Shown here: positions 51,122-63,329 of the stretch, piece after piece
How positions within the stretch are numbered: the stretch's first letter is position 1
Layout of the letters: each line of letters starts with the position of its first letter
Origin: Amphiscolops sp. MND2022
Lineage: Eukaryota
Direction: 5' to 3'
DNA: 64,000 nt
NCBI GenBank assembly: GCA_964187785.1
Contig: OZ076409.1
Coordinates: 64,854,001 to 64,918,000 of the forward strand
The notes under the pieces: generated by a model
Told to the model about the DNA's origin: nothing
Database searches by the model: none
Seen by the model: the letters and a program-made list of their open reading frames with translations, nothing else
Made by a program: the position numbers and the translations under genes

Positions 51122-51161
51122 GTGTAGCTTCGCGTATTTTTCAACTTTTTCATCTTAATAA

Positions 51162-51962
51162 ATGTATGAAACTCCGTCTCTTCATAAGTTTGGTTATTCT
51201 AGTGAACAGCTAAAACTGAGGGAATATCAGGAGCTAAAAGATATGATAAAAAGTCAAGAAAAATTAGCCCAAATAACCCATTCCAAATTAAAAGAAGATT
51301 TGCAACGTGATTTTGAAAATGACATAGAAAATCAAGAGAAATTAATAGAAGAAAAAATGCTAGAACAAACACTAGACCCACAGGAAATTCAAGATGTTTT
51401 ATTAAACACAAAGTTAATGAATGATATTTATTCCCAGTTTTCAGACCTTTCAAAAACCATAAATAAATTAGAACAAAATATGAAAAAATCTTTCGCCGAA
51501 CAAAGAACTGCTTTAGTAAATGAGGTACTAAATTTAATACACAACAATAGTTTTGAAATGTTAACAGTCCGTAATTTAAAGTTTATGAGTCAGGTGGGTC
51601 AAGCTGGAATGATTTTAAATGAAGATGAAATTAATAAAATTTTTAATAGCCTCGATCAAAATAAAATTACTATAACTAACAACATAATTCAACTGCTTTA
51701 TGACAAAGGCTTGTTCGATTCCTTTCCCAATAAAGATCAAGCTTTTGCAAATTATCTAACTTTTAGTGAATCCTATTTAAAGGAAAAGTATGGAAAAACA
51801 ATACCTACTTCAGATGGTGAATATTATCTGTCGGATTTAGAATATTCTACCAGACAATCAATTCTGGAGTCATTGAAAAAAGATTCCTATAAAGACCTTG
51901 TTGATATGAAACACAGAATGAAATTAACACCAACGGAAATAAATTTCATTTTATATGATTAA
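51162..51962 (+). CDS. Polinton hypothetical coiled-coil protein (266 aa)
   Basis: Long ORF, E/K/Q/L-rich heptads, AATAAATG start shared with the other Polinton genes. Confidence 0.75.
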   Translation: MYETPSLHKFGYSSEQLKLREYQELKDMIKSQEKLAQITHSKLKEDLQRDFENDIENQEKLIEEKMLEQTLDPQEIQDVLLNTKLMNDIYSQFSDLSKTINKLEQNMKKSFAEQRTALVNEVLNLIHNNSFEMLTVRNLKFMSQVGQAGMILNEDEINKIFNSLDQNKITITNNIIQLLYDKGLFDSFPNKDQAFANYLTFSESYLKEKYGKTIPTSDGEYYLSDLEYSTRQSILESLKKDSYKDLVDMKHRMKLTPTEINFILYD

Positions 51963-51965
51963 TAA

Positions 51966-52649
51966 ATGGAACAAAAACTCTATCCCTCTCTGACCCCCGC
52001 GACAGCTAACGCAACGGCCTCTCCCCCCACACCATATGATGTAGAATCAATGATAAATAAGCGATTGCATAGCGCGTTGCAAAGCGAATTACAAAAAGTA
52101 AATAGTTTCAATAATTCTATTCAAAACATTAGTCTAATGATGAAATATTATGAAATGGAAGAAAAGAAATACAAACAGAAATACAACAAATACAAGCTAA
52201 TAAATAACTTAATTAACTCCCTCGATGGCATTATAGTGATTGGAACAACTTCAGCATCAATCTCACTAAGTATTACTGGTGTGGGTATTATAGTTGTTCC
52301 AATCGCTGCAGGAGTTGGTTGTACAACTGGTATTCTTGTTAAGATTTGTTCCAGTTATTTGAAGAAAAAGGAGCAAAATTATAAACTTAAGTATGCTATT
52401 ATTCAGAAGACCCTTGACGACTTTAGACAACTTTATGTCACTAGCCTAAAAGATAATCATATAGATGAAAAAGAATATCACCGATTTGTGACTCAATTTG
52501 AAAATTATCGCGAAGCTTCGCGCATAGCTTCACACACAAAATCACATACAAAATCACAAGTAGCTTCACACGCGACAGCTAACGCGACAGCTAACACAGC
52601 TTCACACACACCACCAACAATACCACTTAAACCACACAATTTTTTATAA
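51966..52649 (+). CDS. Polinton membrane protein (coiled coil, hydrophobic hairpin, coiled coil), N-terminal LYPSL
   Basis: Hydrophobic stretch GIIVIGTTSASISLSITGVGIIVVPIAAGVGCTTGILV flanked by Lys-rich helices. Confidence 0.8.
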   Translation: MEQKLYPSLTPATANATASPPTPYDVESMINKRLHSALQSELQKVNSFNNSIQNISLMMKYYEMEEKKYKQKYNKYKLINNLINSLDGIIVIGTTSASISLSITGVGIIVVPIAAGVGCTTGILVKICSSYLKKKEQNYKLKYAIIQKTLDDFRQLYVTSLKDNHIDEKEYHRFVTQFENYREASRIASHTKSHTKSQVASHATANATANTASHTPPTIPLKPHNFL

Positions 52650-52761
52650 TTAATTTATTCAATTTTAACATAAAAAATAAAATAAAAATTAACACTAATA
52701 ATTGAAAAATATACTATTGAAAAATATGCTGCTATTAAATTCATAATTTTATTATAAATAA

Positions 52762-60622: not shown

Positions 60623-61711
60623 ATGAATTGCTTAATTTGTAATAAAAGTAGTGAAAAAAGTTTATGTGATGATTGCTCTAGTAAAAAAAGATGTAAAGAC
60701 TGTGAAACTTTGAAGAATTGTAATACTTTTTATTCATACAAAAATGGCAGAACGTACTCTTCATGCAAAGAGTGTTTTAATAAAAAGGTGAGGTGTGAAT
60801 TTTGTAATAAGGAATTAAATAAAAGTTATTTAAGGTCACACATTAAAAAACAACACTATAATCAACAGTATAATCAACACTATAATCAGCATACTGGGGG
60901 TGATTTGCTTCCGCGACAGCTATCGCGACAGCTATCACGAGAGCTACAGCGGGAGTTGCCACGAGGCGTGTCTTCACACAGTAATAATAATAATGCGGAA
61001 GCTAACGCGAAAGCTATCGCGAATAGCCCTGCGGGAGCTAACGCGGGGGCTAATGCTAATAGTGGTGTGCAGAGCTTCGCGGAAGCTGTCGCGGAAGCTG
61101 TCGCGGGAGCTAACGCGAACGAAACTAATAGAACATTAATAGTTGGCCCATCATTTTGTGGTAAGACTCATTTGTTGTTGAATAAATTACGATTGATTCG
61201 TTTGGAAGATCCAGAGAAACAAATTCGTATCATTACAAGGAGTCCGGAACAATATGAATTCATTGATATTGGTGGTGTAAGTGTGGAAGAAAATGTGGGG
61301 GATTTGGAAGAGTATAGGGGATGTTGTGTAGTATTTGATGATATGTTAGACTCCAACCAGAAATTGATTGATCCATTTTTTACTAGGGGAAGACACAAAT
61401 CTTGTGATGTTTATTATTTATGTCAGAGTTATTTTGATGCACCAAAAAAGACAGTTAGAAACAATAGTAATATCATAATTTTATTTCAACAAACACTGAA
61501 AGATGTAGAACATATTCATAGGGACATATCAGGTTTTGATATGTCTTATGAGGAATTCAAAAGTTTGTGTAGAGAAGCATGGAACGAAAAATTCAACTAC
61601 CTTTTAATAAACAGATTGAAAGATAAAAATGGGAGTAGGTACAGGATTTGTAATGAATCTAATCCAAATTACAAGATCTTTAATCCACAAACTGATCCTT
61701 TAAGTAATTAA
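60623..61711 (+). CDS. A32-like packaging ATPase 2 with N-terminal Cys-rich zinc fingers
   Basis: Walker A GPSFCGKT, Walker B VVFDD, TRGRHKSC, QSYF, VRNN. N-terminal CxxC pairs and a C2H2 finger, then a low-complexity linker. Confidence 0.9.
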   Translation: MNCLICNKSSEKSLCDDCSSKKRCKDCETLKNCNTFYSYKNGRTYSSCKECFNKKVRCEFCNKELNKSYLRSHIKKQHYNQQYNQHYNQHTGGDLLPRQLSRQLSRELQRELPRGVSSHSNNNNAEANAKAIANSPAGANAGANANSGVQSFAEAVAEAVAGANANETNRTLIVGPSFCGKTHLLLNKLRLIRLEDPEKQIRIITRSPEQYEFIDIGGVSVEENVGDLEEYRGCCVVFDDMLDSNQKLIDPFFTRGRHKSCDVYYLCQSYFDAPKKTVRNNSNIIILFQQTLKDVEHIHRDISGFDMSYEEFKSLCREAWNEKFNYLLINRLKDKNGSRYRICNESNPNYKIFNPQTDPLSN

Positions 61712-62737
61712 GTTGCTTTGTATATTTTGGTGTTGAGAAGGTGATATGCATTCATACTCCAATAACTTGTCTATAATTGCAATAATTTCTTCATTAATCA
61801 AAAAACTATCATTTCCTCCAACTTTTTCAAAATAAAGTAATTTCAATTTATCCACTAATTCGTCTGGGTCAGATGGGAGGAAAATGTACTGTTGTGAATA
61901 TTCGCGATAGCTTTCGCGCAATCCACTTCCTGTGAAGCCCTGTGTGTAGTCCTGTGTGGGAGCTGTCGCAGAGCTCCCCGCATAGCCTTGTGTGAAGCCC
62001 TGCATATATTTATACAATTCTTTAATAAATTGATATCTGATTGATTTTTTATCTCCATAATTTAGATCATATTTCATATCATTTAGGAAAGTATAAATTG
62101 AGTCCCAGTTATTTATTTGTTTGTCAAATTGCGTATTAGTTATAAAATATTGAAGATCTGGGTCATTTAAATTGTATGAATTCCCATTCTCGAAAGTTAT
62201 TGTTGAACCTTTGATTAGCACTTGTTGTGGGTTATGGGGATTAATTATGAATATATTTGGATAGTCTTGTATAAATGGTTCTAAACTAAATTGACTTTTG
62301 TTTTTGTCATTAAGTAAATTAGAAACTGTTTTTACAATACTGGAATCAACTTGATTGGAAGTAACAAGACTTGTAAGAAGCTGATTATTACGATTCGTAA
62401 TTTCATCATATTCTTGTATTCCTTCTTTAATTGATTTCTGTAAATTTTTATTCAAAGCGTTACTCGATTCTCGAATAGCCTGTGTTTGATTTTTTATTGC
62501 TTGTACTGTTTGTGAAGCTGCGCGCGAAGCTTCGCGGGTAGAATCATGTAGTGCTTGTATTTGTTTTTCATTTGCTTCTACCTGCTTTGTAGTAACAGGT
62601 TCAAAAACTTCTTCAAGGTCATAATGAAAGTCTTGTTTCCCTAGTTTCTCTTTTAATCTTTCTTTAAAAATTAAGGATTTTGTTTCTTGTAATTTTTTTA
62701 ATTTTTCCAAGTCATCTCGGGTGTGAATTGAATACAT
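61700..62737 (-). CDS. Polinton conserved uncharacterised (probable core) protein
   Basis: 345 aa. C-terminal FLPSDPDELVDKLKLL..GGN..EEIIAIIDKL resembles a motif common in Polinton proteins; preceded by TGSGL. Confidence 0.7.
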   Translation of the reverse strand: MYSIHTRDDLEKLKKLQETKSLIFKERLKEKLGKQDFHYDLEEVFEPVTTKQVEANEKQIQALHDSTREASRAASQTVQAIKNQTQAIRESSNALNKNLQKSIKEGIQEYDEITNRNNQLLTSLVTSNQVDSSIVKTVSNLLNDKNKSQFSLEPFIQDYPNIFIINPHNPQQVLIKGSTITFENGNSYNLNDPDLQYFITNTQFDKQINNWDSIYTFLNDMKYDLNYGDKKSIRYQFIKELYKYMQGFTQGYAGSSATAPTQDYTQGFTGSGLRESYREYSQQYIFLPSDPDELVDKLKLLYFEKVGGNDSFLINEEIIAIIDKLLEYECISPSQHQNIQSNLIT

Positions 62738-62763
62738 TTATTAAGTATAATTAATGCATATAA

Positions 62764-63300
62764 CTAGTGGATTTTCCCCAGATACAGGCCTTTACCATTA
62801 GTTCTTGCTTTTCTGTTTGTGTTGCTTGTGTTAGCTGCTTTGCTGCCGTTGCCTGCTGCTTTGCCTGCTTTGCTGCGATGGCTTCCGCCTTTACTCGACA
62901 ATGCTTCGGCTTTGTATAGGCCCTTCCCTTGATGAACAAATTTAATAACATCGGGGGCAGTTGCGGCAATTAATCGTGGATTTTTACTTGCTGCTGCAGT
63001 TCCAATGTTTGCTGCTATTTCTAGAGCTCTTGCTGGGTTATTGAGTATTTTCTTTCCAACATTTTTGGCTGCAGAACCTAAATGTTTGAAAAAGTCCCCC
63101 AATCCTTCCCCATCTATTGTTCGTTCAGATACAATTAGACTCTTATTTCTGTTACACACTACACAGTTGCCACGTAATGTGTGTACGGGCCTGCCCATCT
63201 GTATCCCAGTGTTTGTAATTTCTCCATGAATATTTGTGGTGGGGGAATAATGTTTTCCACCAACACAATATGAATTATTTATAAATTTATTATAACTCAT
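62764..63300 (-). CDS. Small basic protein with Cys motif and amphipathic helix (probable membrane-lytic core protein)
   Basis: YCV..CVVC, then GEG|LGDFFKHLGSAAKNVGKKIL amphipathic helix; GKGLY twice. Confidence 0.7.
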   Translation of the reverse strand: MSYNKFINNSYCVGGKHYSPTTNIHGEITNTGIQMGRPVHTLRGNCVVCNRNKSLIVSERTIDGEGLGDFFKHLGSAAKNVGKKILNNPARALEIAANIGTAAASKNPRLIAATAPDVIKFVHQGKGLYKAEALSSKGGSHRSKAGKAAGNGSKAANTSNTNRKARTNGKGLYLGKIH

Positions 63301-63329
63301 TTATTAGAAAAAAATTGTATTAAATCCTA

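Follow-up and report, generated by a model that had tools for sequence, protein, structure and literature searches.

The 64,000-nucleotide stretch of DNA from Amphiscolops sp. MND2022 analysed here (contig OZ076409.1, positions 64,854,001 to 64,918,000 of the forward strand), referred to as the window, carries most of an integrated Polinton whose 12 genes all begin inside the same short word, ATAAATG. An invariable part of this word, TAAATG, and an A/T-rich core lying upstream of it are found in a whole clade of related elements of the same genome, in an arrangement that resembles the late promoters of poxviruses. Altogether, the sequences indicate that this clade-wide promoter-like signal is real, whereas the mechanism we propose for it, transcription by the machinery of a helper virus, is plausible rather than shown. 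The matter bears on how animal Polintons are expressed and on whether any of them require a helper virus.

Distribution of the start-codon word

The original prediction placed nine starts of the window, on both strands (51162+, 51966+, 52762+, 58048-, 58999-, 59034+, 60623+, 62737- and 63300-), within ATAAATG, and all nine are correct at these coordinates; eight of them read AATAAATG, as had been quoted, and the start of the capsid gene (58048-) reads TATAAATG. The three starts located past the window edge read TAATAAATG, which completes the 12 genes. The two strands of the element together have 536 ATGs that are not starts, of which 18 come directly after TAA and 6 after ATAA. The spacers are very AT-rich and the starts were called as the first ATG, two circumstances from which such a pattern might arise by chance. 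However, when the 40 nt upstream of each start were shuffled as a composition-matched null, the joint log10 P was −14 for TAA and −19 for ATAA in the family of the window element (family A), and −22 in its sister family C, and distant relatives that are equally AT-rich have TAAATG at just 13 of 355 starts of open reading frames (ORFs), many of them fragmentary; we give chance practically no weight. Over the entire window, TAAATG shows no enrichment (68 occurrences versus 74.8 expected); the non-random part is its placement at starts.

The host is an animal, with 7 Wnt matches in the genome that are about 30% identical to named Wnts, and its Ras-family genes were taken as a control for the usual start context. 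After examination of 58 loci, 46 of them with an in-frame ATG, 45 were kept (one, 343 codons away, was dropped), and among these predicted starts, some of which may be wrong, TAAATG occurs at 3/45 and ATAAATG at 1/45, so the possibility that host genes simply share the context found no backing. Polintons with other capsids in the same genome behave in the same way: a nested classical Polinton has TAAATG at 0/13 starts, and five more loci, which are 26–44% identical to it in the shared proteins, at 0/24 filtered starts and at none among the 27 listed. The word is thus neither a host start context nor a general Polinton trait, and the earlier statement that every Polinton gene bears it holds for the 12 genes of the window element but does not extend to the other-capsid Polintons of this genome. 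The nested copy interrupts the capsid gene of a family A element (L023:1900 to L114:8700; G000:C9 about 24.505-24.521 Mb), and many of its starts are preceded by pyrimidine-AG sites, which occur at 10/24 starts in similar families versus 2/12 in family A; this suggests a spliced, host-type transcription for the classical element.

The comparison of 29 related copies, which share ancestry and whose counts are not independent, revealed how the word is kept. In subfamily A, TAAATG is found at 142/148 located starts. In subfamily B, with a capsid about 80% identical to that of A and with g1 and g2 relocated, 112/155 starts are fused to TAAATG and 146/155 have TAAAT within 9 nt, in a count that leaves out 15 starts without ATG. 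Family C is more distant (capsid 40.5–42.4% and integrase 35–37% identical; about 60 copies by capsid search) and has all its genes in tandem, with a different gene order and different accessory genes; even so, two of its copies show TAAATG at 18/22 and 14/19 ORFs of at least 40 aa; among the misses, four are fragments of broken genes, four are ORFs that are short or terminal, and one has a detached TAAAT. This conservation in the sister family identifies TAAATG as the constant word, and neither a polyadenylation signal nor a stop-start junction; ATAAATG, the motif first put forward, remains accurate for the window element, but across the clade positions −4 and −5 vary. A capsid tree groups A, B and C with two database proteins in one clade (support 96/59) within a larger one (99/96).

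Swaps of the family B DNA polymerase (PolB) have occurred inside this clade (L260:7500 to L261:700 versus L266:1-3700; also L232-L233; a subfamily-B2 copy differs in its PolB), and every swapped-in PolB gene bears the start signal. In family C, one copy has a PolB 45% identical to that of the window and the other a PF03175-type enzyme, again with the signal on both. A U-box/DUF4116 accessory gene of family C (L260:7011-7484) also starts with the signal; an Atlas search with its protein returned nothing, and a tie of this gene to giant-virus gene pools is possible.

Outside the clade, no close relatives were found in viral contigs with the window capsid and P0121 as queries. The set of distant relatives comprised 80 metagenome loci and 12 viral loci, the latter left from 15 after removal of two duplicates and a decayed one; judging from these, the strict TAAATG word is limited to the clade found in this genome. 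Two distant relatives with a similar gene set have TAAA at most 10 nt from the ATG in 10/15 and 13/13 ORFs, with 2 and 2 further upstream. Others (L121, L133, L211 and L217) have their own uniform TATATA-like word beside most start codons, which would fit lineages matched to different transcription systems.

A two-part signal with poxvirus-like geometry

When 30 starts of family A and family C are aligned, positions −3 to −1 are constant (TAA in 30/30), and an upstream T-rich core occupies positions −15 to −10, where T is found at −14, −13, −12 and −10 in 18, 21, 23 and 20 of the 30 sequences, respectively, and G in a single one of the 180 cells. The core window was picked after viewing the pooled counts, so it was tested again with statistics corrected for the scanning of all positions, and in this permutation test 6, 0 and 0 of 5000 reached the observed values. 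Moreover, a matrix trained on family A or on family C peaks at zero shift in the other family, with only 3 and 0 of 20,000 shuffles doing as well, figures that are optimistic because the window was chosen post hoc. Starts also score above non-start TAAATG sites with the core matrix, in a comparison confounded by coding composition.

The spacing from core to initiator is 6 bases. Vaccinia late promoters are described as having an A/T core of 8-11 nt about 6 nt before the initiator, the distance being about 11 nt in intermediate promoters (PMC12722222), and a late initiator TAAAT(G/A) that overlaps the start site (PMC5294985). The element has these same features, TAAAT followed by G or A and an A/T-rich core about 6 nt upstream, the latter weaker in the subfamily-B2 copy. 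The signal in this way resembles a poxvirus late promoter more closely than originally noticed, since the core stands at the published 6-nt spacing. Compact bidirectional promoters are also reported for poxviruses (PMC3185747), as in the divergent integrase/ATPase pair, whose ATGs are separated by 34 nt in the window element and by 14 nt in subfamily B.

The sequence TAA directly before ATG could also be read as a translation signal, either a fixed start context or a site of stop-start reinitiation on polycistronic messages. The triplet is indeed an in-frame stop, and in family C, with tandem genes mostly 0-60 nt apart, it is the stop of the upstream gene in 2/18 starts. This is so, however, in 0/12 starts of family A, where 4/12 genes do not even have a co-oriented upstream gene, and real stops are TAA in 8/12 and 9/16 cases, far from the constancy seen before the ATG. 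Five variants in which a spacer of 1-5 nt detaches the ATG are most informative in this regard: the TAA is shifted off the start codon, yet all of them retain TAAAT, four in the TAAATA form also allowed by the pox TAAAT(G/A) initiator and one as TAAATT, and all have a purine at −3. Host starts favour a purine at this position too (28/45), where the element has T, and an upstream core at fixed distance is not a known feature of translation signals, so we consider this reading improbable.

The presence of AATAAA at 11/12 family A starts suggests yet another possibility, that of a polyadenylation signal of the upstream gene overlapping the next start codon. Against it, only 6/18 family C starts have AATAAA or ATTAAA, the variation falls entirely on the first two letters and never on TAAA, the word is present at first-in-run and divergent genes, and such a role would not need a fixed register to the ATG, all of which makes it very hard to sustain. 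Two further candidates were rejected: a trans- or cis-splice acceptor, as AG is absent within 12 nt of all 12 starts, and a TATA box, for which the established geometry would put the transcription start downstream of the ATG.

Helper virus or host polymerase as the possible reader

With the polyadenylation, stop-start and splice-acceptor readings failing, a transcription promoter is the best reading, and the start signal is likely a promoter or initiator of this kind. Each gene would be its own transcription unit, headed by the core at −15 to −10, a gap of 6 nt and the TAAAT initiator, which in most cases overlaps the ATG. RNA synthesis would begin within the AAA, leaving the T at −3 out of the mRNA, and slippage of the polymerase could add a 5′ poly(A) leader, by analogy with vaccinia and the yeast virus-like elements.

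Searches with Pfam and PHROGs revealed neither an RNA polymerase nor a capping enzyme among the 12 ORFs (g10 was scanned only in its C-terminal 222 aa). As the element encodes no RNA polymerase and has one promoter class on its replication, integration and capsid genes, the late machinery of a helper is the likeliest reader, and we lean, by a narrow margin over even chances, towards the polymerase of a pox-like or other giant-virus helper. In this model, the promoters would be read by the late machinery of a co-infecting virus, poxvirus-like or another of the Nucleocytoviricota and not necessarily a true poxvirus, and the element would behave in its animal host as integrating virophages do, lying silent in the chromosome until the arrival of the helper turns it on. 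The single promoter class, ATGs only 14-34 nt apart and the dense AATAAA on the coding strand would fit transcription outside the polymerase II pathway. The last argument is weak and tracks base composition: coding strands have 2.7 and 2.6 AATAAA per kb, versus 0.26 in other Polintons (6 in 22.9 kb) and 0.41 in host frames (6 in 14.8 kb). The 36 sense-strand occurrences in 13.5 kb of element frames compare with 31.5 expected from synonymous shuffles, with no depletion, and no clear depletion of AATAAA, TAAAT or TTTTTNT was found in coding DNA. Yeast virus-like genes are cut in the nucleus, which offers a parallel to this density.

The same promoter anatomy could instead be read in the nucleus by the host RNA polymerase II, assisted by a factor of the host or by an unassigned protein of the element (g1, g8, g9 or g11), in which case the pox likeness would be a convergence or the legacy of a helper-dependent ancestor. 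Several facts speak for this alternative and weigh against a helper. Copies of the element number from hundreds to over a thousand in the chromosomes, some of them nearly identical (at least 139 integrase matches; 1,346 first-look capsid candidates, of which 126 were scored), and so high a copy number is more easily explained by autonomous germ-line spread. Five marker searches of the genome gave no helper remnant, so the NCLDV (nucleocytoplasmic large DNA virus) or poxvirus inserts envisaged by the original prediction did not turn up: VLTF3 and the NCLDV capsid had 0 matches each, neither with a working control, pox D5 had 0 as well, and the matches of RPB2 (9 at 3 loci) and family B polymerase (13 at 4) look host-like by locus number. 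Transcription without a helper is reported for other Polinton-type elements, since transcription of polintovirus genes is described in corals in an account that names no helper (PMC11131425), and some adintovirus genes in Amoebidium are described as turning on after demethylation alone (PMC11244446). Against the helper model there is also the unexplained route from a chromosomal copy to a cytoplasmic polymerase. Further points against it concern the signal itself: TAAATG is a short, AT-rich word; the core, clear in one subfamily-B copy, is mixed in a subfamily-B2 copy; and in the five detached starts the core tracks TAAAT in 2/5 and the ATG in 1/5, scoring poorly either way in 2/5.

Against polymerase II, on the other hand, the word is lacking at the starts of host genes and of the other-capsid Polintons that share this nucleus, the divergent ATGs are only 14-34 nt apart, and sense-strand AATAAA is dense and not depleted, this last being a weak point that follows base composition. 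We regard polymerase II as possible but rather unlikely. The helper polymerase suggested at the outset gains from the differing host contexts and the pox-late geometry, and it continues to be an inference, with no helper sequence found in the genome.

The element, its relatives and what they may mean

The Polinton is complete and extends from position 50518 of the window to ~2.1 kb past its edge, over a total of 15,586 bp. Long terminal inverted repeats with AG...CT ends and 6-bp target-site duplications are features of Polintons/Mavericks. Here the left inverted repeat (50518..51092, plus strand) begins with AGTAGTAG and matches the right one perfectly over 575 bp, and the 6 bases at 50512..50517 are found again after the right end (L011); among 10 copies examined, the duplication is present at the window copy and at 4 others with both ends found. 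Together with PolB, an rve integrase, a packaging ATPase and a capsid, these are the traits of a Polinton/Maverick. The 12 ORFs encode a Beta-type PolB, the integrase, two A32-like ATPases, a double jelly-roll capsid protein, a protease-like protein, a probable minor capsid protein and five proteins without assignment, g1, g8, g9 and g11 among them.

On the plus strand, the signal of g1 (51147..51164, core at −15 to −10, TAAATG at 51159-51164) heads the first gene of its run, g1 (51162..51962, 266 aa, no family match), and is followed by the signal of g2 (51951..51968), with TAAATG at 51963-51968 and only 3 nt past the g1 stop. The product of g2 (51966..52649, 227 aa) has a hydrophobic segment and no Pfam match, and a similar family C ORF shows a weak SLATT match. 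The PolB signal (52747..52764, TAAATG at 52759-52764) precedes a polymerase of 1297 aa with an endonuclease VII-like insert (52762..56655), assigned to the Beta class for its absent PF03175 match; it is 22% identical over 547 aa to a PF03175-positive PolB and about 30% to PolBs of viral contigs. In the opposite orientation lie the major capsid gene (56765..58048, 427 aa), whose product matches PF21738 (E 4e-21) and eukaryote-associated clusters and whose signal TATAAATG (58046..58063) is the sole one without AATAAA, and the retroviral-type integrase gene (58127..58999, 290 aa, PF00665 E 7.5e-11). The divergent double signal (58997..59036) has TAAATG at 58997-59002 on the minus strand and at 59031-59036 on the plus strand, where it leads into the first ATPase (59034..60284, 416 aa, PF04665 E 7e-7). 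The second ATPase, with a Cys-rich N-terminus (60623..61711, plus strand, 362 aa), has its signal at 60608..60625 (TAAATG 60620-60625) and a PF04665 match of E 1.8e-4, below the cut-off. The remaining genes are on the minus strand: g8 (61700..62737, 345 aa, no family match; signal 62735..62752, TAAATG 62735-62740) and g9 (62764..63300, 178 aa, a Cys/basic protein; signal 63298..63315, TAAATG 63298-63303), both kept in related elements, and the 3′ part of g10 (63330..64000), the starts of g10, g11 and the protease-like g12 lying beyond the window (L011). The g10 protein (447 aa) is conserved in relatives and gave no Pfam/PHROG match in the C-terminal 222 aa that were scanned; we infer that it is probably the minor capsid protein. 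For g12 no direct family or PDB match was found, and its alignment with a protein that has a weak PF00770 match gives 35% identity over 81 aa (pairwise E 1e-6); a PDB search with the capsid profile was also empty.

Other sequences of the window deserve mention. Two further AATAAATG sites occur on the minus strand in the spacer of the converging PolB and capsid genes (56666-56695), and one of these two opens an ORF of 105 aa that runs antisense to the 3′ end of PolB and is found again in several copies. A 17-bp tandem repeat inside the terminal inverted repeat (50688-50823) differs in length between copies, and a GC-rich short word (CGCGAAGCT-like) recurs throughout the element (51162-63300, for instance at 55265-55290, 58085-58125 and 60915-61115), with in-frame expansions at these places distinguishing copies. 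The spacer between the two ATPase genes (60295-60620) is of low complexity, with many TTAGTGA repeats on both strands, and the host flank contains non-LTR retrotransposon ORFs for reverse transcriptase and endonuclease, recognised by eye (602-1762, 22485-26241 and 48993-49424).

Comparison with known systems places the element among several partial likenesses. It shares with vaccinia late promoters the initiator word, its G/A continuation and the distance from the core (PMC5294985, PMC12722222), but here the signal, known from sequence alone, is on all genes of a 15.6-kb integrated element without transcription enzymes and not on one temporal class. Mavirus and the endogenous mavirus-like elements of Cafeteria are also described as integrating, with an rve integrase, a PolB and one family-specific promoter word, which differs between families within one genome (PMC10945749). 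In that account virophages have promoters matching those of the helper and use its late machinery, and a response is seen only in the family whose motif matches (PMC10945749). Mavirus has a protist host, a virophage capsid, CroV as helper and another motif, whereas here the host is an animal, the capsid that of a Polinton and the helper a putative one; membership in the virophages (Lavidaviridae) is not claimed, and the capsid tree contained no virophage capsids. The entomopoxvirus-associated Polinton-like viruses, proposed as poxvirus hyperparasites in animals and with PolB swaps between lineages, were found together with their helper, two of them without a detected integrase, and the main text includes no promoter analysis (PMC11296320). 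The idea of a virophage-like element in an animal has in them a precedent. The yeast cytoplasmic elements pGKL1/2 are linear as well and are reported to have a TAAAN initiator with slippage into 5′ poly(A) leaders, but they are non-integrated and have genes for an RNA polymerase and a capping enzyme of their own (PMC6211774). Finally, Beta-PolB Polintons/Mavericks (adintoviruses) share the termini, target duplication, PolB, integrase, ATPase and capsid, and differ from our element in its two ATPases and its uniform start-fused promoter, promoters being unmentioned in that main text (PMC8502044).

Promoters matching those of a helper are known in virophages of protists, and poxvirus-associated Polinton-like viruses in insects; for start-fused promoters in animal Polintons we found no report in the openly accessible literature, supplements being outside this scope. 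If the helper model were wrong, the clade would still have an unusual start-fused core promoter, unlike that of its host and unlike other Polintons in the same genome. A broader and more tentative proposal, to which we give somewhat less than even chances, is that an entire capsid clade of Polintons that carry an integrase and reside in the germ line of an animal consists of heritable provirophages of an undiscovered poxvirus-like virus. Were this true, the promoters would be a fossil print of the helper's late transcription machinery, kept beside host-transcribed Polintons in the same genome, and start-proximal words would sort animal Polintons into autonomous and helper-dependent ones and predict the helper. 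The virophage logic would then reach from protists to animal chromosomes, an unknown pox-like virus of this host would be implied, and the elements could provide an animal with an antiviral system that is inherited and triggered by infection.

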